A stretch of 64,000 bases of DNA from a virus. Positions 2,414 to 19,811 of the stretch are shown here, one piece after another; positions within the stretch are counted from its first letter, which is position 1; each line of letters opens with the position of its first letter. The DNA is taken from IMG/VR virus record IMGVR_UViG_3300042868_005761, positions 1-64,000 of that record; one strand, given 5' to 3'. The notes below the pieces were generated by a model that did no database searches, had not been told where the DNA came from, and saw only the letters and a program-made list of their open reading frames with translations. The translations under genes were made by a program, and so were the position numbers.

Positions 2414-3163
2414 ATGAAAATCAACACCCTCAACACCAACAAGGTGAACGTCATGAATACGACTACTGAAGAAATCGCCGTTTCGGCTAAGATGGAGGAA
2501 ACCATGAAGACTATGCGTGTTATTCACTGGACTGCGCCTAACTTTGGCGACATCATTGCTAAGGATGGCGTTCCCGCAATGGAAGTCACCAATCACCTTC
2601 ACCCGGAAAGAAAGAAAGTGATGGGCACTTGGGCTGTTCCGGCAAATGCCAATCTGGATGCTTTCTGGGCTGGATACATCACCAAGAAGCACTCTTCGAG
2701 TGCTGTACAGGTAATTGCGGACGTTCCGATCTCGACTATCAAGGTCATGAAGGAAGGATTCCCGATTAAGTTCAATCTTGATTGTTGCGATGACCCTGTT
2801 ATCTTTCGTGAGCTTGCTGAGCTTATGATGGACAACGACAACGGCCTGATCTGCTCTGAAGGTATCAAGCATGAGTGGATTGTTGAGGTCAACTATGCAG
2901 TTGAAGTCTACAAGCCTGAAATTATGCTTGCACGAGAAATCAGAAAGTCTCCTCCTTTTCGCGACTGGAAGCCGACTGGACTTGACTGGGAAGGCGGTTG
3001 TCCTGCTTGTTCTCGCGTCGGTGAGTACCTGTTCGAAGCGTACGCCCAGCGCTTTGGTCTTTACAACGACTATAGCCTCGCTCACAACCGTTCCATTGGC
3101 ACAAAGGATGACAAGTTTGACTTTATCGACCTTTTTGCCTGCGAAATCGTGAAGGTGTACTAA
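2414..3163 (+). CDS. hypothetical protein
   Basis: ORF following the previous stop; SD-led ATGs at 2453 and 2504; CPAC motif. Confidence 0.8.
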   Translation: MKINTLNTNKVNVMNTTTEEIAVSAKMEETMKTMRVIHWTAPNFGDIIAKDGVPAMEVTNHLHPERKKVMGTWAVPANANLDAFWAGYITKKHSSSAVQVIADVPISTIKVMKEGFPIKFNLDCCDDPVIFRELAELMMDNDNGLICSEGIKHEWIVEVNYAVEVYKPEIMLAREIRKSPPFRDWKPTGLDWEGGCPACSRVGEYLFEAYAQRFGLYNDYSLAHNRSIGTKDDKFDFIDLFACEIVKVY

Positions 3164-4506
3164 TGAACAACATCGACAATTCTGTCGTCAACAAGGAGTC
3201 TGCTATGTCAATTGCATTCGTCATCTTTGCCATCCTGGCTATCATCACCGCTGTCTGGAAGGGGTCTGTCATGAACAAGTTCGTTGCCAACAAGGAGTCC
3301 GTTATGCTCGTCGTCAGCAAGAGGTCCATTGGGCTTGCGTTCAGCATTGTCTGCACTGCAGCTCTCTTCATTCCCTACGCCCTTGTGGCTACGTTCCAGG
3401 ACATGGTCGTGTGCACTCTCGCACTCGCCCCCTTGGCATTCACTGCCATTGATATCCTCATCCACGTTGAGTACCATGACGAGGTGCGCAGCATTGCACT
3501 TGCATACAATGCTCTCAAGGGTCTTCCTGCTTACGAGGCAAAAGTGAAAGCTAACTATGCGGAAATGATGGCAAAGATTGCAACCTTCCTTCTCCTCGTA
3601 ATCACTACAGCTTGCAGCACCGACGCTAAGCCTGAAATGGATAATGCGCAGTCGACGGCTAATGCTGTTACTGATTATAAGCAGGTTGATAATACTCCTA
3701 AGGCCTATGGTCAGATTGAGACTCCTGTATACAAGGACGGTGAAGTTCTGTACGGCACCTGCAGCGCATGGAAATGGAACGGTAAAGTCTACACCATCCA
3801 GCACTGCAATGAATACCTGGAAGAGCATGGCAACACGGACCGCGTCCAACAGTCAACGGCCGATAACACTATCTCTGGTGACTTCTACAAGGAAGGTACA
3901 GAGTGCAGCCCTGATATCCGCTGGTGGGGCACAACCACCAATAAGTGGGTAACTATTCCTATGGAGCAAATCTTCAAGAAGACAAGAAACTATCTTGATG
4001 CTCCTTACGAAATGCAGCAAGAGCTTATTGACTCCAAGTATAAGGCTATTACTGCTCTTAACGATTACAAGTACGCGATCGAAGAGAACAGCATGAAGAC
4101 TGATAGCGATAATGCCAAGAAAGCAAAAGAGAAAGCACGGGCGGCTTTCAACAAGTTCTACAACCAGTTGAAGTACATCAAAGAGCACTACACGAGCCAG
4201 GAGTATCTCTGTGCTTCTTCTGTAGCTGAGGATAGCATTAAGAAGGGTGACTCTGGTGGCCCCATCATGCTTGGTGATGAAGTCATTGGTAGCGCCTCCT
4301 TCTTCGTTCGGACCGACAACCAGATGTTTGATGAGTTCTACACGGAAGCTCATAGTAACTATCCGGTCTCTTGCTTTGCTATGGTTGACAATAAGCCGGT
4401 TGCATCGCCGTTCATTGATGGGATGGCGTCAAGCTACTCGGATATCTTTAGCGATTACACGAATGTCTTTGACATCATTGAAGTGTTGGGGTGGACTCAT
4501 GAATAA
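3163..4506 (+). CDS. membrane-anchored trypsin-like serine protease
   Basis: GTCSAW..VYTIQHC (catalytic His) and GDSGGP (catalytic Ser); several N-terminal hydrophobic segments and lipobox-like ITTAC. Confidence 0.8.
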   Translation: MNNIDNSVVNKESAMSIAFVIFAILAIITAVWKGSVMNKFVANKESVMLVVSKRSIGLAFSIVCTAALFIPYALVATFQDMVVCTLALAPLAFTAIDILIHVEYHDEVRSIALAYNALKGLPAYEAKVKANYAEMMAKIATFLLLVITTACSTDAKPEMDNAQSTANAVTDYKQVDNTPKAYGQIETPVYKDGEVLYGTCSAWKWNGKVYTIQHCNEYLEEHGNTDRVQQSTADNTISGDFYKEGTECSPDIRWWGTTTNKWVTIPMEQIFKKTRNYLDAPYEMQQELIDSKYKAITALNDYKYAIEENSMKTDSDNAKKAKEKARAAFNKFYNQLKYIKEHYTSQEYLCASSVAEDSIKKGDSGGPIMLGDEVIGSASFFVRTDNQMFDEFYTEAHSNYPVSCFAMVDNKPVASPFIDGMASSYSDIFSDYTNVFDIIEVLGWTHE

Positions 4507-5644
4507 CGTTACTACTGTGAACTCGAACAACCCGAACGAGGAGAAGGTCATGGACAACTGGGAAGAAATGCAAGAGGCCGAGCTTAAGGCGTACCGTGAG
4601 AGGGAGGACAAGATGAAGAAGGCATACCGCCGCGAGAACATCCTGTTTGTGCTGGCAATGGTTGTAATCATTGCAATCTTTGCTGGTATCTTCACTCACG
4701 TTGTGCGTAAAAATGCGCGCTTCCATCGGGAAAAAGCTGCTGAGGCACGGAAGCAGGAAATCCGGCAGGCAGAGTGGGTTGCTAACAGCGACTATTACGA
4801 GGTTGTACAGCAGGTGGAAGAGTTTCTGGAAGAGAAGTACCGGGCAGAGAACAACAGCCACCCTGGAATTGGTGCTATCAACACGAGGGAAAAGGAAGGC
4901 CCCCTTGATGAGAGCGGGAACTGCACTGCATGGAAGTGGAAAGGTAAGATCTACACTGCAGAGCACTGCACACGTAACGGTTACCGTGAAAACGCTGGCG
5001 ATATCGTTGTGCCGGCTGACAAATACCCTAACGAAATCAAGGAAGATCTCTATGAGATTGGTCTTGAGTGCAGCACTGACTTCCGTTGGTGGGGTAAGAC
5101 CACAGACATGTGGGGTTATGTGCCTTTTGAGCAGGTCTTTGACCACATGAAAAAGGGTACGCCTAGCATGAAAGAGCAGAATGACATGAGATGGGCATTC
5201 GTCGATGCGAGAAACGCGCTTGAGGATGCAAGCCTGAAAAGCCCCGAGGTTATCTTCAAGAATCTCGTTGACACCTACAAGAGGTACATTGCAGGCGCTA
5301 GCAACCAACGCTTCATCTGTGCCGCTGCAGACAGCCTTGAAGTCTCTCCTGACCATGGCGACTCTGGTGGGCCTTTGATGGCAGGCGATGAGGTAATCGG
5401 CTTTGTATCTTACACGGAATGGCCTCAGCGCGAAACCCTTGGCACAGGTGTCGCTGAAGACTTTGAAGTCAAGTACAACGATGCCTTGTACGTTGGCACC
5501 ACTGACTGCTGGGGTAGCTTGGACCGCAGCAAGGATACGGTAAACCTGGCTTATGCCAAGCAAAACATGGAAAGGTACGAAGATCTCTATCAACAGTTCC
5601 TGCTTAAATACGGGCAGGAGACTATCAGCAACTGGGAGAAGTAA
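4499..5644 (+). CDS. membrane-anchored trypsin-like serine protease (paralog)
   Basis: GNCTAW..IYTAEHC and GDSGGP; single TM helix; alternative SD-led start at 4550. Confidence 0.8.
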   Translation: MNNVTTVNSNNPNEEKVMDNWEEMQEAELKAYREREDKMKKAYRRENILFVLAMVVIIAIFAGIFTHVVRKNARFHREKAAEARKQEIRQAEWVANSDYYEVVQQVEEFLEEKYRAENNSHPGIGAINTREKEGPLDESGNCTAWKWKGKIYTAEHCTRNGYRENAGDIVVPADKYPNEIKEDLYEIGLECSTDFRWWGKTTDMWGYVPFEQVFDHMKKGTPSMKEQNDMRWAFVDARNALEDASLKSPEVIFKNLVDTYKRYIAGASNQRFICAAADSLEVSPDHGDSGGPLMAGDEVIGFVSYTEWPQRETLGTGVAEDFEVKYNDALYVGTTDCWGSLDRSKDTVNLAYAKQNMERYEDLYQQFLLKYGQETISNWEK

Positions 5645-5645
5645 C

Positions 5646-5816
5646 ATGATTGTCATACTCTTTATCCTAATTTTCCTCCTTATTCAGGGGGAGATTACCG
5701 CCAAAGCTGCAGCTGAGGCTGATGCCAAGGCTGCTGCCAAGGCTGCTGCCAAGAAGGCAGTGGCTCGCCGTTTCCGTCACTCCCGCATCGGCCGCATTGG
5801 CCGGCGCATCCACTAG
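5646..5816 (+). CDS. small membrane protein with Ala/Lys/Arg-rich tail
   Basis: ATG one nt after the upstream stop; hydrophobic N-terminus. Confidence 0.6.
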   Translation: MIVILFILIFLLIQGEITAKAAAEADAKAAAKAAAKKAVARRFRHSRIGRIGRRIH

Positions 5817-6385
5817 TGTCTAAGGAGAACGTCATGAATAAAACTACTGAAGATAACGCCATTGTGGCTAACCTGGAGGATGACATGAAGACTGAAGCTT
5901 TTGTACCTTTCTTTCTTTTGCACAACGACGGGGCAGTCAGCCTGATTGAAACGTCTATTGCGGCTTCAGAGAGTGAGACTTTCATTCCTGCCATCGCATA
6001 CCCTCTTGGTCGCCGTCAAAAGATGACGACTTATCGGATTGACAAGTGGATTCGTCCCATGAAGACGGTTGTCATTGTCTCGGAAGGCAACATCATTGCT
6101 GCGACCGAAGAAGCAAACACACTTTCACACTGGATTGATGTGCGAATGGGCATCTTTCCTAGCCAGAGCTGGTTTCGTCGTACTGTGCTTTGGACGGCTG
6201 CTGAAGTTGCAAGTGCCAATCCTCGTCTCATTGCTCGCTGTGGCCGTCGCTGCGCTCTTCCTGACTTCAGCCAGGTGTCCGACTGTGGCATCAATGCTGA
6301 GGTTGTAAAGAAGGGGGACTACGATTGGACCGATAACGAGCTCACGAAGATCTGGGAGAAGATCTCTGAGAATGAGGGTTGCTAA
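5816..6385 (+). CDS. hypothetical protein
   Basis: 189-aa ORF; SD-led ATGs at 5834 and 5885. Confidence 0.75.
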   Translation: MSKENVMNKTTEDNAIVANLEDDMKTEAFVPFFLLHNDGAVSLIETSIAASESETFIPAIAYPLGRRQKMTTYRIDKWIRPMKTVVIVSEGNIIAATEEANTLSHWIDVRMGIFPSQSWFRRTVLWTAAEVASANPRLIARCGRRCALPDFSQVSDCGINAEVVKKGDYDWTDNELTKIWEKISENEGC

Positions 6386-6453
6386 TGAACACCATCCCCA
6401 AGTCGGGGACAACGTGTAAGTAATGAGTAAACGCCATTGACCCGGATAGATAA

Positions 6454-8793
6454 ATGGATGTATCCATGAAAACCGCTATTCCTCCTGTAGAGGATGTACC
6501 AAGGAATGCAATGAAAATTGACAGGTCTGTAAAAGAGGTTACTATGGGCAAGGTTTTCGTTGGCGATATTCACGCACGTCCCTGTCTCGTCACCTCTGCC
6601 ATTGAGATGGCAAACGGCAGGGACATTATCTTCCTCGGAGATATCTTCGATGGAGAAGGTGGGGCACAGGGCAGCAAGGATTGCCTTGACATCATCCGTG
6701 CCTCTGGTGCGGAGATGATTCTGGGTAACCATGAACTCTACCCGCTCTTCTTTGGCGATAGCCAGGAAGAGTTGGCGAAGGCCTGGGGGATTCATTATGA
6801 TCTCTCTCAGGATGATCAAGGCCGTATTTGGCGTGAGTGGCAGGAGCTTCGTGCTCTGCTCACTGAGGATGATATGGCCTGGTTGCGCTCTCGGCCTCTA
6901 TGGGTCAAGGGCAAGACCTGGACTGCTGTACACGCAAAGCTTCCAGATGGTAAGTTGCCACCTCGCTTTGTCAAAGGCAAACCGACTGCATCACAGATTG
7001 AGCTTCTTGATAACACTAATCCTGATAATTTCTGGGCTAGAAATTACAAGGGTTCGCACGGGTTGGCAATTGTTGGTCATACGCGCCGCTCCAAGATTCC
7101 TCAGGGACAATGCTCTTGGGATCATGTTCGTTTGATTGACTGGGATGCCAAAAAGGGTGGTCCTGGTTGTGTCTATTTCCTTGAGGAGGACAAGATGAGT
7201 GAGATTGTGAACCAGCCTGAACCAACACCCCCACCGCCACTGGAGACTACCATGGCATTTCGTATTGCCCTCGACGCATTTATCCGCCTGATTAGCCACG
7301 ATGTCAACGTTGCCGCAATGTGTGGCATCAGTGACACGGGCATCAATCCGTACTACAAGGAGAAGACTATGAAGAAGTCCCGCCCCCGTCCACCTAAGGA
7401 TCCCGTCATGCGTAAGTCCCGTCCTCCCCGTCCTCACAAGGATCCCGCCATGTCCAAAATGTCCCGCCGTCAAAAGCGCCGTCTCCTCCACCTCTGGCGC
7501 AAGCGTGCCGGCATCCGCTTCCACGGCGTGTCGGTCCCCCGCCCCGAGGTGCAGTTCATCTACACCGAGAGCTACAAGGTTGGGGGTGGCCGCAAGAGCG
7601 GTCACGTCGGCGGCTGGTCGATTGGCCTCATTGGTCAGCGCCAGAAGGAGAAGGCCACCGGCCCCGCCAACAACCGGCCCGGCACGGCTCTACGCAAGTT
7701 GCTCGCCAAGAAGGCGGCTCGCGCTAACCGCTATGTCCGACCCGTCACGGCGGTAAAGATCGAGGTCGTTCAGCGCAAGGCTAAGACCAAGCGCAACGAG
7801 CTCTCCACCCTTCGTGCACAGGCCAAGCCCTTCGTGGCAAAGCCTGTGGTCAAGAGCGCCGCAAAGCCCAAGGTCGTCCGCTTCGACGACTACCTTGATG
7901 CCACCCGCCTCGTCAAGGCGGCTTTCGGCCCTCGGTCGGCAAACACGGGGGTCAAGACCCTCGACAAGGCAGTTCGTACTGCACGTCGCGCTCTTGCCAA
8001 CTTCGGTGCTGCTTGGCGCAAGGCAAGAGCGCTCGATGCGATGGCCTTCACCTGGGCCGAGGAGAACCCCGCCCAGGTCGCATCGCAGAGCCTCGCTGCC
8101 AAGGCTGCGCGTCTCCAGGCTGAGGCCGAGGTGAAGTCGGCACGGGCTGCCGCACTCGCCAAGGTGGACGCCGAGAAGAAGGCCGTCAAGGCCAAGGTCA
8201 CGGCAATCCGCGCTGCCATCGCAAGCCGCAAGGCACAGGAGATCACCGAGGCTCGCGCTGCCAAGAGCGCCAAGGCGGCAACTCGGAAGGCCAAGGCTGC
8301 AAAGGCCAAGGCCAAGGTCAAGGCCATGATCAAGGGCAAGGCCGGTATCGCGACGATCACCACGGTTGCGCCGACTGCTAAGCCTGCAGCTGCCAAGGTC
8401 ATGGTTGTCATGACCAAGCCTGAGGCCGCTCCCAAGGCTGAGGTCAAGCCTGCCGTCAACGCACCTGCCAAGCCTGCTGCCAGCGCACCTGCCAAGCCCC
8501 GCCTCGGCACCGGCTGCAGCTTCGTGTCAATGCCCCACAACCTCCGGAAGGAGATCGCTGTGGTGAAGTTCGGTCGACCTGCTGCGCCTGCACGTGAGCA
8601 TGCCCAGGTGACCATGTCTGACCTCAAGGCTCTTGTCAAGTTCGGCAAGACCGTGCCTGTTGTCAAGGCCCCAGTTGTTCCTGCTGTGGTCATTGTCTCT
8701 GCAGAAGAGCAGGCTGCAATCAAAATTGTTGAAGCACTCTTTGGCCAGAATTTCTCTGCGCTTGAGAATGAGGGAATGGAGGTTAATCAGTAA
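6454..8793 (+). CDS. calcineurin-like metallophosphoesterase in frame with a Lys/Ala/Arg-rich histone-H1-like region
   Basis: GDIH, GDIFD, GNHE and GHT motifs (from 6544); basic, GC-rich low-complexity region from 7369 with its own SD. Confidence 0.8.
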   Translation: MDVSMKTAIPPVEDVPRNAMKIDRSVKEVTMGKVFVGDIHARPCLVTSAIEMANGRDIIFLGDIFDGEGGAQGSKDCLDIIRASGAEMILGNHELYPLFFGDSQEELAKAWGIHYDLSQDDQGRIWREWQELRALLTEDDMAWLRSRPLWVKGKTWTAVHAKLPDGKLPPRFVKGKPTASQIELLDNTNPDNFWARNYKGSHGLAIVGHTRRSKIPQGQCSWDHVRLIDWDAKKGGPGCVYFLEEDKMSEIVNQPEPTPPPPLETTMAFRIALDAFIRLISHDVNVAAMCGISDTGINPYYKEKTMKKSRPRPPKDPVMRKSRPPRPHKDPAMSKMSRRQKRRLLHLWRKRAGIRFHGVSVPRPEVQFIYTESYKVGGGRKSGHVGGWSIGLIGQRQKEKATGPANNRPGTALRKLLAKKAARANRYVRPVTAVKIEVVQRKAKTKRNELSTLRAQAKPFVAKPVVKSAAKPKVVRFDDYLDATRLVKAAFGPRSANTGVKTLDKAVRTARRALANFGAAWRKARALDAMAFTWAEENPAQVASQSLAAKAARLQAEAEVKSARAAALAKVDAEKKAVKAKVTAIRAAIASRKAQEITEARAAKSAKAATRKAKAAKAKAKVKAMIKGKAGIATITTVAPTAKPAAAKVMVVMTKPEAAPKAEVKPAVNAPAKPAASAPAKPRLGTGCSFVSMPHNLRKEIAVVKFGRPAAPAREHAQVTMSDLKALVKFGKTVPVVKAPVVPAVVIVSAEEQAAIKIVEALFGQNFSALENEGMEVNQ

Positions 8794-10790
8794 TGGCTAA
8801 GAACATGACAACCGAACAAAAAGAGGCTCTTATGAAGGCCAAGCAGGAACAGAGGGAGCTCATGGAGAAAATCTCCAAGCAGTTCCCCAAGTTCGCGACG
8901 AGCAACCTGATGGGTGTCAAGAAGCGTCTTCTTGCGCTGCAGGCTATTGGTGTAGATATGTACCGTCTTCGGTGTTTTGGCAAGCTTCGGATTGTCAAGA
9001 GCAAGTTCAAGGGGCGTGACAGACAAGTGAAAATCAAGACCATGAATGCTCCGGCATTCAACAAGTTTGCTAACATCTTGCTGGCAAACAAGGAAGTCTT
9101 TACCTGGTTTAACCAGGTTGCTCATGACCCGACCTGGGAAGCCTTCTGGGTCACAATTGAGAAACTGGCAAGGAAGCCGAAGACGCTTGATACCTGGTCG
9201 GCGGCCGAGTGGATGGTTGCCCGGAACCGCTTCAAGGACACTGTTGAGCTGGTCAATCAGCTTTCAGTCAAATTCCTTGGCAAGGAAATGGCGGAAGTCA
9301 AGACTACGGAGGTTGAAGTTACGGCTCTCTTTAACAAAGAGACGTACTACTTCCGCTATGTCAGTCCTCAGATGGCATGGGATGAGTGCAAGGACATTAA
9401 CTTGCGCTACTTCCCGCCACCAAACGACGCTGGCCGGTTCTGTGTCGGTGACGGTTACTACCAGCACCAAATGAAGTCTGGTAAGTACCATGGCTACATT
9501 GTCGACAAGACAGTGGACGCCAAGACGAACTCCTACAAGGGCGGAGAGAAGTTCTCCTTTGGGTTTGTCCTTGTCACCAGCGGCGGTGTTGCGGACTGGG
9601 GATTTGGTCCTGAGAACCAAGTTACCGGCGGTGAAGAGGAGCTTGCAAAGGCTATCTTCGGTGCTTCTCGTAGCGGAGGCCTCACAGGAGGCCAACCAGA
9701 AGAGCAATGGATCCGCATGATCATGGCTGACTGGTTTAACATGCGCCAGCCCACTTACAATCAGTGGTGCAGTCATATCGAGAAAATCGTAGACCTCCGC
9801 GGCTGGGATCCAACTGGTAAGCCAGACAATGGGTTCTATGAGCGAACAGACAAAAATGGGAAAATATTCCTAGAGTATTTCTACAATGGGAATATTACTG
9901 AGCGCCTGTTCCTCAATCCCAGGGGAGTCCGTCAAACCGCCTACGCAAGCACTTGGACTGCTGGAGCTGATGGGTTCTGTCAGAAACTAAATGAGACCAG
10001 TAGCACGGTTATGCGCTGGTATATGCAGGCACCGGATACTGCAAACATGCAAATACTGGCAGAGTATCAGCAGAACAAGCTCCACCGCCTACGTGACAGT
10101 AGCATACCTGATTCTCCGTATCACTCAGCGTATTGCGCTAAGACTGCCGGAGGAACCTTGTGGGAGCTAGCAAGCAAGCATAACTTGCCATGGGAACTTT
10201 ATAGCTTTGACATGGACAGCTCTTGGGAGAACGCCGAGTTTACCCGGCCTCATCTGTTTGGACTGTCTCGTAGCGACTTTGAAGTTGCTTTGTTGGAAGA
10301 GAAGAAACAGGAAGCTGTCTTCAGTCTTCGGACAAAGGATGCTATGACGTTACAAGAAATGAAACGTCAAATCCGGAAGTTCAACGAGATGGACAATTTC
10401 TTTGAACCTCAAATTCTCAAAATGAGATATGAGCGTAACGAACTGCAGTCTTGCAACAAGAGTGGGGTAAATGGTAAGGACACTGGAGACAAGCACTATC
10501 GACTTCTGCTCCAGAGACTTATCAATCTTCATGGCTACAAGTGGATGAAAACCGCAAGTGGCTATATGTTGGTAAGCCCAATCCTGGCCTACAACAATGC
10601 AGATCGTATCATGACTGACGCCCAAAGTCGAGCCATTGATATGGGGCTTGAGAAAACAAGCGGTCTTCGTTATAAGGATCGCCTTTACTTCTCCTATGGC
10701 ATTCTTACGCCAATGGCAGATGAAATTCTTCTTTACGACGCACGTGAAGGTCTTACGACACCCTATCGCGCAAGGATGGAGCAATGGTAG
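8793..10790 (+). CDS. hypothetical protein sharing a domain with 235-2409
   Basis: 665-aa ORF coupled by TAATG; GRFC..DGYYQ..FG..GV.D.G motif. Confidence 0.85.
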   Translation: MAKNMTTEQKEALMKAKQEQRELMEKISKQFPKFATSNLMGVKKRLLALQAIGVDMYRLRCFGKLRIVKSKFKGRDRQVKIKTMNAPAFNKFANILLANKEVFTWFNQVAHDPTWEAFWVTIEKLARKPKTLDTWSAAEWMVARNRFKDTVELVNQLSVKFLGKEMAEVKTTEVEVTALFNKETYYFRYVSPQMAWDECKDINLRYFPPPNDAGRFCVGDGYYQHQMKSGKYHGYIVDKTVDAKTNSYKGGEKFSFGFVLVTSGGVADWGFGPENQVTGGEEELAKAIFGASRSGGLTGGQPEEQWIRMIMADWFNMRQPTYNQWCSHIEKIVDLRGWDPTGKPDNGFYERTDKNGKIFLEYFYNGNITERLFLNPRGVRQTAYASTWTAGADGFCQKLNETSSTVMRWYMQAPDTANMQILAEYQQNKLHRLRDSSIPDSPYHSAYCAKTAGGTLWELASKHNLPWELYSFDMDSSWENAEFTRPHLFGLSRSDFEVALLEEKKQEAVFSLRTKDAMTLQEMKRQIRKFNEMDNFFEPQILKMRYERNELQSCNKSGVNGKDTGDKHYRLLLQRLINLHGYKWMKTASGYMLVSPILAYNNADRIMTDAQSRAIDMGLEKTSGLRYKDRLYFSYGILTPMADEILLYDAREGLTTPYRARMEQW

Positions 10791-13700
10791 AAAACATGAA
10801 ACAGAACGTAACCATTCCGGTTACTGACAAGGAGGGTACTATGTACCGTAGCTATCGAGAGCATCTCGAATTCTCCGGGGTGAAGAGCCCCTATGCTGAC
10901 CTTCCGGGGTTTGAATCTCTCCTCGACCACCCTGTGGTTGAGAATGGACACAAGATCCCTGAGGGTTACGCGCCTCTCTTTGCCGTTTCCAGCATGGAAA
11001 CGCTGATGGTGCCTAAGGCGCTGAAGGCAAAGCTGGTGGGTGCCGTTGAGTACACCAGCAAAACCGCTCAGAAGGGCCGCAAGTATGCGCGTTCTATGAT
11101 GACGGCCACCTACAGCGGGCTTATCTCTGCGACTGGCAAGGTTGTGAACATGGCTGACTTGGATCCTGCCTACAAGGCAATCCAGGACGGTGTCCACTAC
11201 ATGGGTACCGCAGAGCTCACCCCTGGGCCTATGACGCAGGGCATGCAGGTGCGTCGTGTTGTTAAGCGCAAGGCGTACTACAAGGGCGCAATGGGTGCAG
11301 TCAAGGTCTGGGTTCCGCCCCATGTCTTCCTGCTGAGCTCGGAGGACAAGCAGGATCTCAAGCCTGATCTCTCTGACGATGTTGCGCTTATGGTGCAGCC
11401 GAGCGTTGGTGAGATGAAGTCTGAGCCTGGGGTTCTCCTCGGCGTTCAGAACTTGAGCGCTCTTTTCGGTCAGGTTCTCAATGATCCGCAGTTCCATGCG
11501 ATCCTCAATGAGATGATTGACTGGAACATCTCGCACTGGGATGACTACGTTAAGGATTCTCTCAAGAACCTCAATGGCGATGTCCTTGAGGCTACCGAGA
11601 CGTCCACAACGTTCAAGGCCAAGATCACCAAGATGCTGCTTAGTCTTGGTGTTCACCCTGGCGCAATTCCTGCTACTGTGACTACTCTAGTCAACAGTGT
11701 CAGCGAGGATGTCACGCAGAGCAAGCTGCGCATCAACGCGGTCACGAAGGACGGCCCTTGTGGCTTTACCTCGTATCCCCGCGCTCTTGTCTGGCGGATG
11801 TTCCGCGACCTGTGGCTCCATGAGGAGAAGCAGGGTGCCTTTGCAAACGAGACCGCTGGCCTGAAGAAGCGTCGTCTTCTCATCATGGCTGAGCTTGACC
11901 GCAAGGCAAAGATCGAGGAAGCGTTCAACGCCAAGTCGGAACAGATCCTTGCCAAGACGGGATTTGCGGCAATTGCTATCACGGCAGAAGCTGCGAAGAA
12001 CCTCAACGTTCCTGCTCTTAACATCCATGATGTAAAGGGTGAGAACGAGAAGGAGCTTGCCGTCAACCATCGGGATAGCCTTGGTGCTGCGGCTCGTTGG
12101 CCTACTTCGGCTAAGGTCGATGTGCGGGTCATCTATGTTGTCCTTCAGGACGACATGTTCCTGCACGCTACTGCATACTTCGGCAGCACGGAGATCATGC
12201 AGAAGGCTGTCCTCGTTAGCATGGACGGCGGTGACGCTGACGACAAGGCATTCTTCCTCTGCGGAAAGCTTGGTCTCCTTGCTCTTCGCTCTATGAATCT
12301 GCGTAACTTCAAGCTTTCGCAGTTCAAGCCGGAAGACGTTACGGGCACGTACGAGAAGGCTCATACCTTCCTCGCAACACTGCCTAGCCGCCTTGACCTT
12401 GTCAACAGCATTCCGAATGCTCACAAGCTGATGTCTTCGTACTTCAATGTTACGGAGATTGAGAAAGTATCTTCCAGTGGCCTTATCCGCTACGAGATCA
12501 CCAGTCTCACTGAGAAGCAGCAGCCTGCAGATCCTTCGGTTGTCGACAAGACTGCTGAAGAGAAGTGGGACATGATTCACCTTCCTGGCGACAATGAGTT
12601 TATGCCTCTCGTTGGCGCAATGGCAAATGCTCAGATGTTTGGCAGCTATTTGCTTGCCGACCTGATCATCCTGCCTGGTTCCATCAAGACGAAGCCTGCA
12701 CTTCTTGCCGCTTGCATGATGGAGGGTGAGATCTCCCTCGTTGTTGACGCAGCACAGAGCGGTACCGACTTCCCGGGCGCTTGGAAGGCTTGGCACAACA
12801 TTGACGCAGTCATGACCATGATTGCTGTGAGCTGGGTTCTCAACGACCGCAATGCAATGCGTGAGAATCCTGACGCTAAGCCGACTAAACTGACTGCTCT
12901 TAAGCCTGTCCGCAAGCGTCTTGGTGTTAGCCTTCTTTCCCTTGTAACTGCACCTGTTGCTGTGCGTTACACGGGAGAAGTCTCCGAGATCACTGGTCAG
13001 CGCATCATGGTTCCGGCTCTCTTCAAGGATGAAGAAGGCAAGATCCCGATGACCGCCAAGATCTGCCAGTCTCTTCGGCAGTCGGTTGTCACTGCAACTG
13101 GTCAGGCGGTTAAGGTCGACCATCCCATCATCCGTAGCTTCACTCGCTACTGGAAGACGATGACTACGAACCTTAAGACGTTCATCGATGAAGGCACCAG
13201 CAGCCAGACGGCTACCCTTCTCACCTCTACTCTTCAGGCATTCCTTGAAGAGCACGCGCATGACCTTGATCAGCTGATCAACAAGCATTACCGCGAAGAG
13301 CAGGAGCAGTATCAGGGTGAGTTCAACCTCACGACCTTCGGTAGCTTCATCTTCCGGCAGTACCACTCGCTTAATCGCTACACGCAGGATAACGGTCATG
13401 TCATGACTGTGCCTGACGCAATGAAGCACCGGTACAACGAGATCGACAAGATCCGTTACATGCTGAACGCTGAGGAGCTCAAGACCCTTCGTCGGGTTTA
13501 CGCTCAGAAGCCTATCCATCAGGCATTCGCTACACGCCATGAAGATCTCTGGCCGAAGTTCGTAGATGTGTACGGTGACAACGCCGAATACAAGTACGAG
13601 ATCTTTGTGCTTGCTGAGCTTATGTCTGCGCTTGGTACGTCTGCAGAGACGGCTATCACGCTCTCCATGGGCAAGGGTAAGATCGAATTCCTCCTTGACG

Positions 13701-15199
13701 AGGATGGCGAGAAGACGAAGTTCATCGATTCTGATGCGATTGACGCGCAGGGTGAGCTTACCTCCAGCGGTGGTTACAGCCGCAAGATGTACTTCACTTC
13801 TACTGCAAACTACAAGGGCTACGCAGAAGTTCTCTGCAAGTTCCTTGAGGATGCTGCCGTGAAGAAGACTCAGGATAAGCTTCTTGCTGCCGACGTTCGC
13901 GCCGCCTTCCTCATTCGTGAGAGCAAGGATGGTAAGACTGTTGATCCTCAGTCCCTTGTTGGCCTCAGCATCCAGCAGCTCCTCAGCGACAACCGCATCC
14001 AGCTTGCATACGGTGGACAGCGCGGTAACCCTGACCAGGACCATCGCGCCGCCGCAGTTGCTTACTTGGTCTTCCGCAAGACCAGTGAGACTCGCAAGGC
14101 ATTCGATGAGATCGGTGCCTTCAAGGGCAAGACTCAGTGGCAGATTGCCGGCATGATGGGCTACCACGGTACTCTCAACAACTTCTTCAGCGGTGCTACC
14201 GTTGAGGCAAGCGAAGTGGAGAAGCGTGACGGTCATGGTGCCAACGGCAAGACCTACACTCGTAACTTCGTCTGGCTGACCTTCAAGGGTCAAGAGCCGG
14301 TCAAGCCGGAGCCTCCTCCCGAGAAGGAGTTCTTCGATATCTCTGCTTCTGAGAATATCGACTACGACAAGATGCTGGAGAGCGCAGGCATGGCAGACTT
14401 CAACTTTGAAGATGCCTTTGGTTCTGAGAATCCAGTCAGCGCTGAAGAGCTGGAGCAGTATGCTACCGAGTACGACAGTGACGAGGAAGAGTCTGAGACT
14501 CAAATCTTCAGTGAAGTACTTAAAGGCACGTACACTGCGGCACAGCCTGTACAACTTGTAATGGTCAACGGCAAGTGGCAGCCTAAGAACATGGCAGATG
14601 TCAATTGGGTCCCGGTTGACGCTCCTGCTGTTGAAGCCAAGCCTGCTCCTGCTGTGCCTGTTGTTGCCGTGGAAGCAAAGCCCTACAGGATTGCATTCAC
14701 TGGTCATCGCCCCGAAAAGATTGGCGGCTATGACGAGAATCATCCTCTGCGTGTTGCTGTAAAGAATGCAATCGCAGATGCATTGAAGCGTGCCATTGCC
14801 AAGTACAGTGCAACTCGTGAGATCATCGTCGTTACTGGTGGTGCTCTTGGTGTTGACACTGATGCCGCACGTGAGGCTCACAAGCTTGGCCTGAAGTTCA
14901 TCGTGGCTCGTCCTTGCAGCGACCATGGTGATTACTTCAAGGGTGACGAAGCTAAGATGCGTTACAAGAAGATGCTTGCTCTTGCTCATCAAGTTGTCCT
15001 TGTCAATAAGAAAGGCTACGACCTTGCAGGCAAAGAGAAGTGTCTCCACGCACGGAACTACTGGATGGTTGATAACTGCGAGGCGGTTGTCGCAATCTGG
15101 GATGGTTCTCCGAGTGGCACATCCAACTGTGTCAACTACGCCAAGAAGGTCAATCGTCCAATGATTATCATCAACCCGAACGACCTTGCAAAGAAGTAG
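10784..15199 (+). CDS. putative single-chain two-barrel (YonO/RdRP-like) RNA polymerase fused to a C-terminal YspA/DUF1273-type SLOG domain
   Basis: ordered motifs DG(135), QxR..KG(155-168), RWP(438), GGDADD(482-487), VGAMAN(610), SLVVDAAQSG(~655); C-terminus FTGHRP..GGALGVD..RNYWMVD..WDG..SGT. Confidence 0.7.
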   Translation: MVENMKQNVTIPVTDKEGTMYRSYREHLEFSGVKSPYADLPGFESLLDHPVVENGHKIPEGYAPLFAVSSMETLMVPKALKAKLVGAVEYTSKTAQKGRKYARSMMTATYSGLISATGKVVNMADLDPAYKAIQDGVHYMGTAELTPGPMTQGMQVRRVVKRKAYYKGAMGAVKVWVPPHVFLLSSEDKQDLKPDLSDDVALMVQPSVGEMKSEPGVLLGVQNLSALFGQVLNDPQFHAILNEMIDWNISHWDDYVKDSLKNLNGDVLEATETSTTFKAKITKMLLSLGVHPGAIPATVTTLVNSVSEDVTQSKLRINAVTKDGPCGFTSYPRALVWRMFRDLWLHEEKQGAFANETAGLKKRRLLIMAELDRKAKIEEAFNAKSEQILAKTGFAAIAITAEAAKNLNVPALNIHDVKGENEKELAVNHRDSLGAAARWPTSAKVDVRVIYVVLQDDMFLHATAYFGSTEIMQKAVLVSMDGGDADDKAFFLCGKLGLLALRSMNLRNFKLSQFKPEDVTGTYEKAHTFLATLPSRLDLVNSIPNAHKLMSSYFNVTEIEKVSSSGLIRYEITSLTEKQQPADPSVVDKTAEEKWDMIHLPGDNEFMPLVGAMANAQMFGSYLLADLIILPGSIKTKPALLAACMMEGEISLVVDAAQSGTDFPGAWKAWHNIDAVMTMIAVSWVLNDRNAMRENPDAKPTKLTALKPVRKRLGVSLLSLVTAPVAVRYTGEVSEITGQRIMVPALFKDEEGKIPMTAKICQSLRQSVVTATGQAVKVDHPIIRSFTRYWKTMTTNLKTFIDEGTSSQTATLLTSTLQAFLEEHAHDLDQLINKHYREEQEQYQGEFNLTTFGSFIFRQYHSLNRYTQDNGHVMTVPDAMKHRYNEIDKIRYMLNAEELKTLRRVYAQKPIHQAFATRHEDLWPKFVDVYGDNAEYKYEIFVLAELMSALGTSAETAITLSMGKGKIEFLLDEDGEKTKFIDSDAIDAQGELTSSGGYSRKMYFTSTANYKGYAEVLCKFLEDAAVKKTQDKLLAADVRAAFLIRESKDGKTVDPQSLVGLSIQQLLSDNRIQLAYGGQRGNPDQDHRAAAVAYLVFRKTSETRKAFDEIGAFKGKTQWQIAGMMGYHGTLNNFFSGATVEASEVEKRDGHGANGKTYTRNFVWLTFKGQEPVKPEPPPEKEFFDISASENIDYDKMLESAGMADFNFEDAFGSENPVSAEELEQYATEYDSDEEESETQIFSEVLKGTYTAAQPVQLVMVNGKWQPKNMADVNWVPVDAPAVEAKPAPAVPVVAVEAKPYRIAFTGHRPEKIGGYDENHPLRVAVKNAIADALKRAIAKYSATREIIVVTGGALGVDTDAAREAHKLGLKFIVARPCSDHGDYFKGDEAKMRYKKMLALAHQVVLVNKKGYDLAGKEKCLHARNYWMVDNCEAVVAIWDGSPSGTSNCVNYAKKVNRPMIIINPNDLAKK

Positions 15200-15234
15200 C
15201 AGAACATAACACTGCACGTAAGGAATAGATAACA

Positions 15235-15528
15235 ATGAAAAAGTCATTTAATGGCCACATCATTGAAACAAACCGTAAACCAAAGCCAACCGGCACTATT
15301 AGGGCATGGGATGGTACTTTGGTTGGAGCAGGAGAAGTTGTGATCTGTGTTGATTTGCGTATCAACAAAGGTTACTATGTACTTCGCCATGAGATTCAAA
15401 TCTTCTTTGACATCAAAGATCCTCCTCCGAAATGGGTTACCCAAAAGGAGAATGAGCACAATGCAAAGATGGCTCGCGGTCTTCTGGAAATGCTAGAAGC
15501 AAACAGAAAGAAGAACGGCGATAACTAG
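15235..15528 (+). CDS. hypothetical protein
   Basis: 97-aa ORF with AAGGA upstream. Confidence 0.7.
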   Translation: MKKSFNGHIIETNRKPKPTGTIRAWDGTLVGAGEVVICVDLRINKGYYVLRHEIQIFFDIKDPPPKWVTQKENEHNAKMARGLLEMLEANRKKNGDN

Positions 15529-15530
15529 AG

Positions 15531-15563
15531 AATAGCCTACCATCACAGGTGGGCTATTTTTTT
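15531..15563 (+). terminator. intrinsic terminator closing the left operon
   Basis: AATAGCCTACC-ATCACA-GGTGGGCTATT followed by a T run. Confidence 0.85.
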
Positions 15564-15684: not shown

Positions 15685-15711
15685 GGGGCTATCGCCCCTT
15701 TTTTCTGCGGA
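15685..15711 (+). promoter_or_regulatory. hairpin element copy 1 (putative phage promoter)
   Basis: GGGGCTATCGCCCC + 10 nt + GGA. Confidence 0.6.
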
Positions 15712-15758
15712 GTCCAGATGTCCTGGCTCCCGTTTGGTCCAGCGTGATGGACTGCGAG

Positions 15759-15786
15759 AGGGGCTATCGCCCCTTGTTTCTGCGGA
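15759..15786 (+). promoter_or_regulatory. hairpin element copy 2
   Basis: AGGGGCTATCGCCCC + 10 nt + GGA; upstream of SSB. Confidence 0.6.
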
Positions 15787-15824
15787 GAGGAGGATGGTCC
15801 TTCTCTCCACACTGGAGCGCACCC

Positions 15825-16250
15825 ATGAGCATGGGCTTTGAGCGTACTCAGGTCGTCGGCAACCTTGGAGCCGACCCTATTCTCCTGACGGGCCAGTCGG
15901 GAACTTCCATCTGCGCCATGCGCGTCGCTGTCAACCGCAAGGTCAAGGGCGTCGCTGTCGTGAAGTGGCGGGACGTCGTGTGCTTCGGTGCACTCGCGGA
16001 GAACATGGCGAAGATCCTCAAGAAGGGCGACACCGTGTTCGTGGACGGAACCCCCGAAGACGAAGAGTTCCTCCGCAAGGATGGCTCCAAGGGCTTCGCC
16101 GTCAAGATCCTCGCCAACGTCGTCGTCAAGACTGGCTCCCCCGCTGGCGCTTCGGCTCCGACTGCGGCTTCGGCTGCGGGCGGTGACGCGGCTGCGGAGG
16201 CCCTTGCGGCGCTTCGCGAGACTGCCAGCGTCCCGACCGACCCCTTCTAG
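15825..16250 (+). CDS. ssb: single-stranded DNA-binding protein
   Basis: VVGNLGADP, W..VVCFG.LAE..AK.LKKGD.VFVDG; C-terminal DPF; very GC-rich. Confidence 0.9.
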   Translation: MSMGFERTQVVGNLGADPILLTGQSGTSICAMRVAVNRKVKGVAVVKWRDVVCFGALAENMAKILKKGDTVFVDGTPEDEEFLRKDGSKGFAVKILANVVVKTGSPAGASAPTAASAAGGDAAAEALAALRETASVPTDPF

Positions 16251-16361
16251 GGCGCAGGTCGAGCCTCAACCCCCCTTCGCCCTAGCGGGCGTCGGGGGGT
16301 TTCGGAGCCCTGTCTTCGCTGAGTAAAAATAGGCCCGCAACTCCGCTTAGTATAGATACAG

Positions 16362-16389
16362 AGGGGCTATCGCCCCTTTTTTCGGTGGA
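16362..16389 (+). promoter_or_regulatory. hairpin element copy 3
   Basis: AGGGGCTATCGCCCC + 10 nt + GGA. Confidence 0.6.
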
Positions 16390-16406
16390 TAGGCAATTCT
16401 GCTTAT

Positions 16407-16628
16407 ATGGAGGAAGTCATGTTGATGAGTGCTGCTGCGATCTTGACTGATAGTTTTGAGAAGGTTCAGAAGGAGACTCTGAGCCTGGATGACGTGAACC
16501 ATGAGTCTTATGACCCGTGGGATGCCATCAATGAGCGTCTCGATGAGAAGAAGTACGAGGAAGATGCCAACACTGGCTCTGACTCGCTGATTGAAGCCGT
16601 GCATACGGCCCGCCGTTTCTTTATCTAG
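16407..16628 (+). CDS. small acidic hypothetical protein
   Basis: 73-aa ORF; alternative GGAGG-led start at 16419. Confidence 0.7.
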   Translation: MEEVMLMSAAAILTDSFEKVQKETLSLDDVNHESYDPWDAINERLDEKKYEEDANTGSDSLIEAVHTARRFFI

Positions 16629-17491
16629 TCTTCGGACTGATAGAGATAGGAGTCTACCCTCCGAAGTTAAGAGCACCTGTCCGCGGGACTCGGGGTAGAA
16701 CTCATGTGCTGGATCTCCTAAGGAGGCACATGTTTAAACAGAAGAGGGGACGACCTAGGGTATGTCGTAAAACTACCCGACTTTTTACGGCGATAGTGGG
16801 TTACACTAGTTCTAGTAGTAGGGTGTAAACTCTATTAGAACTACCATGAAGCGCCATCCTTCAAGAGTTTACTAGTACAATCATAAGTGCGCCTGCCGCT
16901 TATGGGAACCTAGTGAGAGTCAGTTAGTTGCTGTGGGTGTATGGGAGCATAGCACGGTGACGAAAGTCTGCCGTGTTTATGCCGCTACCAGCACATATGG
17001 GTCATTGACTCATAACCACGAAACCTGGCTATATAAAAAGGCTGGTTACTGGTTGGAGCCCTGCCACTAGTAATAAGATAGACATGGGCTTCAAATCCTC
17101 TAGAAAAACCATAGGTGAGCCTGCCACTTATTGGGAACCTAGAGGTAGTCAGGGTTGCAAACCTGGCTTTAGCGATGGGCTGGCTGTTAGTGGACCCCTG
17201 CCACTAATGGAGAAAGACGAACATGGGGTGGTGACTAGTTGGAGCCCTGCCGCTAGTAACGAGATAAACATGGGCACTATCGGAACTCCTTTACTCACCC
17301 TCGGGAAGGATAGGTAGATAAGACAAAGAGGTACTCGTCTGTCCTAGCAGATGAGCAGTGCTGCAGCGCTGTAATATATAGGAGTCCCCAAGCCGTTTCT
17401 CGGGTTTGGATTATGGCTTTAGACAGAGGTTTGATCAGTCTGGTGACGCAACGGACCACACGCGGTTATGGGTTCGATTCCCATATGATTG
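16629..17491 (+). ncRNA. candidate large structured ncRNA (or cluster of ncRNAs) with five repeated pseudoknot modules and a 3' T-arm
   Basis: ~860 nt without a credible ORF; many stems with G-U pairs on the + strand, UUCG and GAAA loops; ATGGG-TTCGATT-CCCAT at 17468-17484. Confidence 0.65.
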
Positions 17492-17517
17492 AATTACTTT
17501 TACTAAGAGGTTACAAG

Positions 17518-17682
17518 ATGAGAAATCAGTTTCCTGGAGTATGTTACCGATGCGGCAAGACTGTTCCTGCTAAGGAGGGACACTTTGAACGTCACATCGG
17601 TACTTGGCGAACACAACATGTCGACTGTGCAATCAAGTACAGAGGCACATCTTACAGTCACACTGCTACAAACAAGGAGTAG
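17518..17682 (+). CDS. small Zn-finger-like phage protein
   Basis: CxxC..HxxC; AGAGG upstream. Confidence 0.7.
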   Translation: MRNQFPGVCYRCGKTVPAKEGHFERHIGTWRTQHVDCAIKYRGTSYSHTATNKE

Positions 17683-17685
17683 CAC

Positions 17686-18267
17686 ATGAACAACAAGAAC
17701 ACGATCTTCAATTTCAGCGCTGTCCGCCTTTTCGCAACCGAGATCGCCAAGAGGATGAACCATCTCGGATACGATACGACCTACTCGGTTGCCATGACCG
17801 AGTTCAGTGGCCCGACCATCAGCTCCGCCATCAGGGGCAACACGGAAAAGGAAGGGTACTACATCGTGGAGCACGGGATGTTCCACGACGCACGCAAAGG
17901 CTTCGAGGTCAATTTCACGATTAGCCTCCCCAGTCCCGAAGGCGGATACATCACCGAATGGGTCAGCGCCAAAATCAACAGGATCCGTCTCCGTGACTAC
18001 CTGGAGACCGAGGAGACCCTGTACTCCGTCCCGACTCTGGAAGTGTACTCGGAGCGGTTTGGAGAGACCGCTGCCTTCTACAGTGCAATCCCCACCTTGA
18101 CGAAGCACTTTGACTTCACGGTCAAGAACGTCAAGGCTGACATGGACAGTCTCATCAACCTGTTCTGGGGACAGAAGAGCCTCCTCAGCAAGATTGAAGA
18201 CCCCGACTGTGCCATCGAGGAGTTTAATAACCTCCTGGTTGAGTTGGGAAGTTCTGTCTCGTCCTAG
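17686..18267 (+). CDS. hypothetical protein
   Basis: 193 aa; AAGGAG SD; GC-rich codon usage. Confidence 0.8.
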   Translation: MNNKNTIFNFSAVRLFATEIAKRMNHLGYDTTYSVAMTEFSGPTISSAIRGNTEKEGYYIVEHGMFHDARKGFEVNFTISLPSPEGGYITEWVSAKINRIRLRDYLETEETLYSVPTLEVYSERFGETAAFYSAIPTLTKHFDFTVKNVKADMDSLINLFWGQKSLLSKIEDPDCAIEEFNNLLVELGSSVSS

Positions 18268-18276
18268 TAGTCAACT

Positions 18277-18406
18277 GATTACTAGTAGGTCCACAGCCTG
18301 AAACCTGCCCGTTGGTAGGCTAACCTATCAGATGTCATGTCTGGTAGCCACAAAGGCTGAATCACTTCCTTATGGTAACAGATGGGTTCGAATCCTGTCA
18401 GGAAGA
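18277..18406 (+). ncRNA. candidate small structured RNA with three-way junction and tRNA-like T-arm
   Basis: CAGCCT/AGGCTG closes CCTGCC/GGTAGG and CTATCAGA/TCTGGTAG; then CTTCCT..GATGGG-TTCGAAT-CCTGTC-AGGAAG. Confidence 0.5.
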
Positions 18407-18433
18407 CTTTACCCCCTTATATAGAGGTTTGTC

Positions 18434-18889
18434 ATGGAAAAGCAGTTTGCAATGGAAACGGTTCAGGACATGGATAAGATCCTTGCTATCCTCAAGCCCA
18501 AACTTGAAGATAGTAAGATGAAGTATCACTTCCTCAAAGAAGAGGACACCACCGAGTGGCATTACAAAGACCAACAGGAATACTGGAGAGTCCGTAAGTC
18601 AGTCGTAGACACTTACTTCAACTGCTTGCAGATGAATGAGTGGGCCGGAGATTATCGCCGTTTTCTGGAAACAGGTCTTGATGGATGGACCTCTAGGGAT
18701 CTGTCGAAGGTCGGCAAAGAGATCCTCAACAGATACCTCAACAAAGTAGTTGAGGAAACCTGGTGGGATGCCAATGAGGACCGCCTTATGGGAGAATTCG
18801 AAAGTTCCCGCCAAGGACTCGGCGATGATGACCGCAACTTTGAGTGGTACATCAATCAGCAATACGAGACTTACCTCCACGAACTGTAA
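18434..18889 (+). CDS. hypothetical protein
   Basis: 151 aa; GAGGT SD. Confidence 0.8.
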   Translation: MEKQFAMETVQDMDKILAILKPKLEDSKMKYHFLKEEDTTEWHYKDQQEYWRVRKSVVDTYFNCLQMNEWAGDYRRFLETGLDGWTSRDLSKVGKEILNRYLNKVVEETWWDANEDRLMGEFESSRQGLGDDDRNFEWYINQQYETYLHEL

Positions 18890-18900
18890 CGAGAAAACCA

Positions 18901-19047
18901 ATGAAGCATATCAATCTTAGAGTGTTTGTCGTAAATAAAGGTATTGTTATCAATGAGAAGCATAACAATATCGATACGGCAATGAACCGTGGAGTAGTTC
19001 TCGCAAACAACCTTGGTGGTCGATGGACCATCACTATCAGTAAGTAG
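18901..19047 (+). CDS. small hypothetical protein
   Basis: MKHINLRVFVV...; fills the operon. Confidence 0.55.
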   Translation: MKHINLRVFVVNKGIVINEKHNNIDTAMNRGVVLANNLGGRWTITISK

Positions 19048-19053
19048 GATATA

Positions 19054-19218
19054 ATGAGCAAGAGCTTCAGATTCGACAAGAAAGAACTCAAGAGTTATCA
19101 GCTCCAGAATATGCATAACGCCAACCATGGCGATAAGCGTAAGCAGAACGAGATCGAGGAAACTCGGAAGTTCGATTGGAGAGAAGAGATTGGGAGAAAC
19201 GCGTTAGACCCCCAATAG
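19054..19218 (+). CDS. small hypothetical protein (not in ORF track)
   Basis: AGGA SD; MSKSFRFDKKELKSY..., 54 aa. Confidence 0.6.
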   Translation: MSKSFRFDKKELKSYQLQNMHNANHGDKRKQNEIEETRKFDWREEIGRNALDPQ

Positions 19219-19411
19219 GTAATACTGGTTGATCCTTAAAAGACCAGAGGTTTGGTATCCCAGAAAATCCTGCATAGATCTAGTTCGCTAGGTCTAGAGC
19301 AAAACTGTCCTAGTTCAGAAAATAACTAGGTGGTACGTCTGGTAACCCAGAGCGCAAAGGCCCCTCTCATCTAGCAATAGGCGGGAGGGGCCCCACACTT
19401 TATAAGACTAG

Positions 19412-19439
19412 AGGGGCTATCGCCCCTTCTTTGTTTGGA
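19412..19439 (+). promoter_or_regulatory. hairpin element copy 4
   Basis: AGGGGCTATCGCCCC + 10 nt + GGA; followed by AAGGAGG and GTG at 19460. Confidence 0.6.
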
Positions 19440-19459
19440 ACCAATTCCAAGGAGGAAAA

Positions 19460-19570
19460 GTGGCCGACAAGAGTACGTTTATCTTTGTGATGTTGCTTCT
19501 AGTTACAACAAAACTTCTAATAGATGACTTTAGCAGTATGCTAACAGTATTAGATCTCTTGTTGTGGTAG
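19460..19570 (+). CDS. 36-aa hydrophobic peptide
   Basis: AAGGAGG SD, GTG start. Confidence 0.5.
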   Translation: MADKSTFIFVMLLLVTTKLLIDDFSSMLTVLDLLLW

Positions 19571-19649
19571 AGGTACGATTCCTATTGTTCCTATTAGGTT
19601 TGATGTTTAAGTTCGTCTGGTTGATCAAAATCCTCAATTAGGAGATCCC

Positions 19650-19811
19650 GTGTATAACCCCGATCCGAATCTGTTCAACATTAACTATAGAGACGCAGAC
19701 AACATCAGTTATCTAGTTGCAAGACTTGAACTGACATGGGGCTCTGAGCGTATCAATACACTTATGAAAGCAGCCAGAACTATTCTGGATAACCAAGAGA
19801 AGGAGAACTAA
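19650..19811 (+). CDS. small hypothetical protein
   Basis: AGGAG SD, GTG start, TAATG coupling to the next ORF. Confidence 0.55.
   Translation: MYNPDPNLFNINYRDADNISYLVARLELTWGSERINTLMKAARTILDNQEKEN

Follow-up and report, generated by a model that had tools for sequence, protein, structure and literature searches.

A phage protein family predicted to consist of two-barrel RNA polymerases with a shortened, DxDD catalytic loop

Two-barrel polymerases carry their catalytic aspartates in a loop, DxDxD or DxDGD, that has been described as invariant (PMC2919709, PMC7708050). In IMG/VR record IMGVR_UViG_3300042868_005761, an uncultured phage referred to here as G000, a 1471-aa protein has DxDD at the corresponding place, which raises the question of whether such a protein can be a working RNA polymerase (RNAP). 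The gene lies in the first 64 kb of the record, the stretch analysed here as the window. The predicted fold of the protein resembles that of cellular RNA polymerases in their catalytic core, and the DxDD family to which it belongs, not described in the literature searched, is probably one of working transcription enzymes. That search, which left most subscription journals outside, found no paper on two-barrel or double-psi beta-barrel (DPBB) polymerases with DxDD. On the model and the conservation described below, we consider it likely that the protein is an active, non-virion, DNA-dependent RNAP that would hold Mg2+ through D484, D486 and D487 and serve a later wave of phage transcription.

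The gene, its motifs and its tail are listed below; motifs of the phage polymerases SPbeta YonO and P23-45 gp64 and residues of the cellular enzymes QDE-1 and Rpb1 are given for comparison.

10784..15199, + strand: gene for the predicted single-chain two-barrel polymerase, 1471 aa.
11081..11095, + strand: K100-Y101-x-x-S104, an invariant motif of the helix that precedes barrel B; putative duplex-binding helix.
12095..12103, + strand: R438-x-P440, invariant; equivalent of QDE-1 R962/P964 and Rpb1 R446/P448.
12227..12244, + strand: G482-G-D484-A-D486-D487, predicted DxDD catalytic loop, without the Gly of DxDGD and followed by KAF.
12593..12637, + strand: N604...G611-x-x-A614-N615, conserved start of the predicted bridge helix, helical in the model.
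12734..12754, + strand: S651-x-x-V654-D655-A656, invariant, predicted trigger-helix motif; IDFAK in YonO, VDRQK in gp64.
14690..15187, + strand: SLOG domain, YspA-type, PF06908 (Pfam), aa 1303-1468, E 1e-11.

The protein thus comprises a core (about aa 16-940), a C-terminal region that is conserved in the family and reaches about aa 1175, an acidic linker and the SLOG tail. An earlier note on this DNA had read a series of polymerase motifs from the open reading frame (ORF) 10784-15199, and the whole set is found there in the order given: IQDGVHYM (aa 133-140), QVR (155-157), YYKG (165-168), AARWP (436-440), SMDGGDADDKAFF (479-491), LVGAMANAQ (609-617) and ISLVVDAAQSG (650-660). The 46 aa that it counted from the Arg to the first loop Asp are those from R438 to D484. 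It had also given QVR as the Arg motif (R157); this motif is present, but the invariant Arg of barrel B is R158, of V-x-R, which lies 23 aa past D135, the same distance as from D111 to R134 of P23-45 gp64. The names for two of the helices are suggested by motif order, in the case of the bridge helix (N604...N615) by this alone and in that of the duplex-binding helix (K100-Y101-x-x-S104) together with KWNSYMALS of YonO. The expectation that such a protein would be annotated only by its SLOG tail or as hypothetical was borne out, homologs being labelled 'hypothetical' or 'YoqJ' (the SLOG tail) in their sources. Searches with the 1471-aa protein in Pfam, PHROGs and the sequences of the Protein Data Bank (PDB) gave no match beyond the C-terminal SLOG domain, and no ESM Atlas feature in aa 1-760 rose above 0.77.

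Homologs were recruited by whole-sequence score, not by motif. A phmmer search over 1.84 billion representatives returned 11, most of them 21-32% identical, and later searches added a few; a pattern scan of GTDB genomes and a tblastn search of cultured phages found no homolog. Identity between homolog lineages is 18-33%, and a quick tree with long branches, which served only for counting lineages, has about ten deep ones. In the conservation alignment (16 non-redundant homologs, 660 core columns) only 28 columns are invariant, and with so few among homologs found by whole-sequence searches the motif pattern is more than chance. The invariant set includes K100, Y101, S104, D135, G136, V156, R158, K167, G168, E187 and K189, as well as R438, P440, G482, D484, D486, D487, N604, S651, V654 and D655. 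Between aa 60 and 720 only five Asp are invariant (D135, D484, D486, D487 and D655) and 34 of the 39 vary. Counting 18 homologs, D135, R158, K167, K189, R438, P440 and D484/D486/D487 are kept in every one. Each of the eight universal catalytic residues given for two-barrel enzymes in PMC2919709 has an invariant residue at its position, and QDE-1 D709, R738 and K743 have the invariant counterparts D135, R158 and K167 (and K189), an equivalence drawn from the order of the motifs and their place in the barrel rather than from a residue-level superposition.

The loop had been read as a DxDGD shortened to DADD, and the alignment agrees, with three invariant Asp always arranged D-x-D-D. Within the pattern G-x-D-x-D-D, invariant in all 18 homologs, the variants are GGDADD, GGDVDD, GGDLDD, GGDCDD, GMDYDD and GQDHDD; it is also kept by the two members added later via neighbouring genes, the one in the related genome G006 (GGDDDD) and the second paralog of contig L019 (GGDLDD). 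The loop is not a sequencing error, because assemblies independent of one another show it, as does each member of the family. It lies 46-55 aa past RxP in the DxDD family, compared with 43 in YonO and 37 in gp64. Aligned by the loop, YonO reads F-DNDGD-KAL, gp64 GA-DYDGD-IGY and the 1471-aa protein GG-DADD-KAF; in the DxDD family the third Asp directly follows the second, and the simplest register would be one in which the Gly of DxDGD has been lost. A register with D487 as the third Asp is favoured because the pattern past D487 fits D-K-A-L of YonO and the RNA-dependent RNA polymerases (RdRPs). The alternative, with D484 as the second and D486 as the third Asp (as in DGDE of PolD), is less likely; the residue two past D486 is mostly polar. 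The 161-kb contig L019 carries two DxDD polymerase paralogs, at 10001-13441 and 15201-18959, 1.8 kb apart, and the second scores E 2e-248 with the family hidden Markov model. Elsewhere in the window, SDYDGD in a 229-aa ORF (29847-30536) was considered as a polymerase piece and rejected, the ORF being small, with no other motif and with low-complexity sequence after it.

An AlphaFold2 model of aa 16-940, built from a 21-row alignment, has a predicted local distance difference test score (pLDDT) of 84.6 and a predicted template-modelling score (pTM) of 0.78. The search for double-psi beta-barrels that the earlier note had proposed finds two of them in this model, whose top structural matches are RNAPs of the single-chain two-barrel type.

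11105..11401, + strand: N-terminal double-psi beta-barrel DPBB-B (beta/Rpb2-like), about aa 108-206; predicted.
11729..12280, + strand: catalytic double-psi beta-barrel DPBB-A (beta'/Rpb1-like), about aa 316-499, with a helical insertion; predicted.

Such enzymes fill ranks 1-23 in Foldseek against the PDB (QDE-1, RDR2, P23-45 gp64, P74-26 gp62, crAss gp66 and gp96; best E 4e-5), and the BFVD matches include P23-45 gp64 at rank 2 as well as crAss-like proteins. In VIA, which is independent of Foldseek and covered 48,161 chains, only RDR2 (Z 12.1, root-mean-square deviation (rmsd) 4.7, 436 aligned), QDE-1 (9.3) and gp62 (8.7) reached Z >= 8, and the whole-model alignments cover both barrels. 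DPBB-B holds the invariant D135-G136, V156-x-R158, K167-G168 and E187-x-K189. Folded alone (pLDDT 72), it matches gp62 (Z 5.9), RDR2 (5.0) and QDE-1 (4.9) best, then gp96, phiKZ and Rpb2-type chains, and after these nearly all DPBB proteins, a uniform list of weak Z; in Foldseek its top three matches are gp64/gp62. DPBB-A holds RxP and DxDD, and stand-alone DPBBs (p97-N, VAT-N and designed DPBBs) align to model residues 301-484 with Z about 7 and rmsd 2.2-2.7. The predicted order of the barrels, B then A, is that of the single-chain two-barrel members. With both barrels predicted, the model would place the protein in the two-barrel superfamily.

In the mechanism that we favour, the catalytic Mg2+ would be bound by D484, D486 and D487, whose loop has one residue fewer than DxDGD, while D135 would serve the second Mg2+ and R158, K167, K189 and R438 would contact the nucleoside triphosphate (NTP) and the RNA. 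The two barrels, the structural matches and the invariant G-x-D-x-D-D support the earlier proposal of a divergent phage DNA-dependent RNAP, of which activity, the DNA template and the gene wave that it serves are the parts that we infer. The same genome, that of a contractile-tailed phage by its tail sheath gene, encodes a second candidate polymerase.

G000 125815-132699 (= L026 5816-12700), - strand: 2294-aa protein in the virion block, candidate virion RNAP.

This protein has WQNP in place of RxP, followed by SSDFDGD, VGLISN and EQKAVGFK, motifs that are conserved in two relatives; it is 65% identical in G006, its one ESM Atlas lead, to PF05183, is weak (0.83), and hhalign between it and the 1471-aa protein is not significant. 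In P23-45 the virion RNAP transcribes the pre-early genes, the gene for the non-virion RNAP among them (PMC10770324). G000 would parallel this with an early DxDD gene and a DFDGD candidate in the virion block: the virion-carried polymerase would transcribe the early operon at entry, as in P23-45, and the DxDD enzyme made from that operon would transcribe a later gene set, with about equal chances middle (as gp64) or late (as YonO).

Several observations weigh against this reading. The best structural scores belong to RNA-dependent enzymes, and global template-modelling scores (TM-scores) are low, 0.2-0.35. A comparison by hhalign with YonO gave a probability of 0.1%, that is, no sequence-level link, and one with gp64 a probability of 0.6% (E 0.09), confined to the RxP strand. 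PF05183 had no match in the protein, the homologs or the genome, although this PF05183/YonO profile test is not very sensitive, since in the control B. subtilis came up only below the cut-off. The candidate virion RNAP is itself predicted from sequence, by its motifs, its position and the weak Atlas lead. Inspection by eye of the intergenic gaps gave no clear middle or late promoter motif, and none is tied to the enzyme. Finally, since DxDxD/DxDGD is called invariant, a family that does not have this five-residue spacing of the catalytic Asp departs from every described enzyme. The low TM-scores and the non-significant YonO and gp64 profile comparisons therefore indicate a separate, very divergent family.

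If loss of the Gly were an inactivation, the protein would be a catalytically dead or repurposed polymerase fold, acting as a nucleic-acid binder, decoy or scaffold. Every described two-barrel RNAP keeps the DxDxD spacing, the genome holds a second candidate polymerase and divergence between close phages is very fast, all of which would suit such a protein. However, the three Asp of the loop, D135 and the basic residues of the NTP site never change while 34 of 39 Asp vary, an inactive enzyme is not expected to retain catalytic residues over about ten deep lineages, and NxDGD of PolD shows that the loop tolerates change (PMC7708050). Because conservation is selective in this way for the loop Asp, D135 and the NTP-site residues, we argue for activity and hold a dead fold to be improbable.

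The structural scores bear on the template. An active two-barrel polymerase might work mainly or also on RNA, for example by copying transcripts of the host or the phage into antisense or double-stranded RNA; RDR2 and QDE-1 score highest, and the first Asp is preceded by GG, similar to GxDxDGD of RdRPs. The characterised phage members YonO, gp64, gp96 and gp66 are nevertheless all DNA-dependent despite their likeness to QDE-1, gp62/gp64 rank first for barrel B alone, and an early-gene position with promoter-like arrays suits a transcription cascade. We accordingly see only a small chance of an RNA template, and attach little probability also to the broader version in which DxDD marks an active lineage with a re-engineered metal site that also copies RNA, like QDE-1, and whose cassette is swapped among close phages. 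The DNA-dependent RNAP remains the reading that we follow below.

Its gene had been placed near the end of a putative early operon, a position consistent with a terminator one short ORF downstream.

235..15528, + strand: GC-rich early operon with the polymerase gene as its last large ORF.
15527..15562, + strand: 15-bp intrinsic terminator that closes the operon, one short ORF past the polymerase gene.
15685, 15760, 16363, 19413 and 19965 (15685..19978), + strand: hairpin GGGGCTATCGCCCC and then a T-rich run, five exact copies.
105..133, - strand: element AAAGGGGGTGGGCTAAAA(A)CGAATAGGGG, located where the early module meets the late operon and directed toward the latter.

G000 has one long early operon and then, downstream, the five GGGGCTATCGCCCC hairpins, candidate terminators or phage promoters that occur nowhere else in G000, in four copies in L003 and in no exact copy in G002. 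The AAAGGGGGTGGGCTAAAA(A)CGAATAGGGG element, a candidate late promoter or genome-end signal, is conserved in G000, G002, G006 and L020. In contigs L019, L021, L023 and L024 a terminator and an AT-rich TACTTAAATAGT(A/C)TGGGYTA unit stand before each small early gene, in 12-21 copies, and every one of the 17 high-scoring TACTTAAATAGT sites of G002 belongs to the early block, including one 290 nt upstream of the polymerase gene. These units are candidate pre-early promoters, like those of P23-45 (PMC10770324). The array was rejected as a promoter of G000, which has 0 sites and for that reason cannot use it; L020 is also without it. Sigma-70 sites in 1-20 kb are not above chance (15 found, 15.4 expected). 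A near-consensus site (TTGACA-16-TATTAT) at about 71500-71535 of G000, before a tRNA-like gene, suggests that host RNAP may serve some middle genes.

Third-position GC is 0.58-0.64 in those early genes that were tested, compared with 0.25-0.39 for the middle and virion genes; the GC-rich block (window 1-20000, with the rest of the genome near 0.3) could reflect a GC-rich host or a separate origin. The operon also encodes two paralogous trypsin-like proteases (Pfam) with predicted membrane segments, at 3163-4506 and 4247-5644. Past it lie a non-coding gap (17040-17275) of repeated 50-nt modules with CCCTGCC, possibly a structured RNA, and six tRNA genes in 20462-38985 (Arg, Met, Lys, Pro, Thr and Tyr). 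The record is 176,231 nt long and probably complete, because its last 126 nt repeat nt 18-143; nt 1-20 are a perfect inverted copy of 107-126 and disagree with the circular overlap, which may point to an assembly artefact or to a terminal inversion.

All long contigs with a homolog are phage-like, and in them the gene belongs to an early block and lies upstream of a gene for a single-stranded DNA-binding protein (SSB). Two SSB genes lie past the polymerase operon of G000, at 15826-16250 and 20055-20433. That SSB follows the polymerase gene in most relatives could fit a two-barrel nucleotidyltransferase with another product, working as a primase, as a DNA polymerase of the PolD type or as an enzyme that tails RNA without a template, and an altered loop could shift substrate choice, as in PolD. 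We judge this quite unlikely: there is no PolD chain among the structural matches listed, the genome already has ORFs resembling DnaE and a primase (identified from motifs), and the protein retains the motifs of the RNAP bridge and trigger helices.

Close relatives differ strongly in their DxDD polymerases at the same locus, which is new here. Between the syntenic genomes G000 and G002 most replication and capsid proteins show 85-99% identity, yet the early block of G002 differs and its DxDD polymerase is 23% identical. In G006 the virion proteins are mostly 65-93% identical, the DxDD polymerase 18% and the SLOG tail 83%. With polymerases that are 18-28% identical in closely related phages, the polymerase has been replaced or is diverging far faster than the rest; either the early module is exchanged or it diverges very fast. 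The swapping of DNA polymerases that PMC11348598 reports for phages would be a parallel case. The SLOG domain, absent from most homologs, appears to be an optional, separately exchanged tail, an accessory passenger outside the catalytic machine. An unnamed C-terminal domain of about 140 aa (start STTLGLANR) in P0004, P0012, P0013, P0017 and P0031 is 62-81% identical on cores only about 25% identical, and by this pattern is another mobile tail.

Fusions occur as well. In P0011 a DxDD polymerase is joined to a SLOG-like segment, with a Pif1/RecD-like helicase at the C-terminal end, and G006 has a 2189-aa fusion. P0002 (L020 10001-18511) is a 2836-aa polyprotein that fuses the polymerase with most of the upstream early ORFs; the metallophosphoesterase, trypsin-like protease, 665-aa ORF and polymerase that are separate in window 235-15199 are fused in it, which suggests that the polyprotein may be processed by the protease.

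The phage RNAPs gp64, gp96 and gp66 were reportedly discovered by searching for the DxDxD motif. If the DxDD family is active, the five-residue loop is not required, the failure of motif and profile searches to find such enzymes is explained, and a natural variant is at hand for direct tests of two-metal catalysis. The presence at one locus, in close relatives, of versions that are only 18-28% identical further suggests that phages can replace a transcription module and keep their replication and capsid genes almost as they were.

Among known systems, QDE-1 (2J7N, 7Y7P-T) and RDR2 (7W84) are the best structural matches (Z 10-12, 436-517 aligned), and D709, R738, K743, R962, P964 and the Asp triad of QDE-1 all have invariant counterparts in the DxDD family; the two are eukaryotic RNA-silencing enzymes with a DxDGD loop and PF05183, whereas the DxDD family has no PF05183 match. 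The two-barrel fold is shared with crAss-like phi14:2 gp66 (6VR4) and P23-45 gp96 (8H2M/8H2N; Z 6.0-7.7), virion proteins with DFDxD, whereas the DxDD gene is in the early block and its virion-block counterpart is the separate 2294-aa gene. Archaeal PolD DP2 is a two-barrel enzyme that works with an altered acidic motif, NxDGD (PMC7708050); there, in a DNA polymerase, a residue is changed and the five-residue spacing kept, whereas in the DxDD family the spacing itself is shorter. YonO, shown to transcribe late genes (PMC5467207), has a DNDGD loop and no sequence or profile similarity to the 1471-aa protein. P23-45 gp64 and P74-26 gp62 (8F72, 8F5M; PMC10770324) share the two-barrel fold (Z 8.7-9.3, predicted here), the motif order DG, xxR..KG, RxP, GxDxD, xG, VD and the barrel-B D-to-R spacing of 23, and they too are early genes of phages with a virion polymerase, a candidate in G000, and with AT-rich arrays before early genes, in relatives of G000. 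They differ in the loop (GADYDGD in gp64, GxDxDD in the DxDD family), in size (616 aa against a DxDD core of about 1080-1180 aa) and in sequence (about 11% structural identity, no profile match), and the DxDD family, unlike gp64, has optional tails and polyprotein fusions, with G000 itself contractile-tailed. Because the spacing and profile tests fail, the DxDD enzyme stands outside the families of gp64 and YonO, yet in its working it would resemble them.

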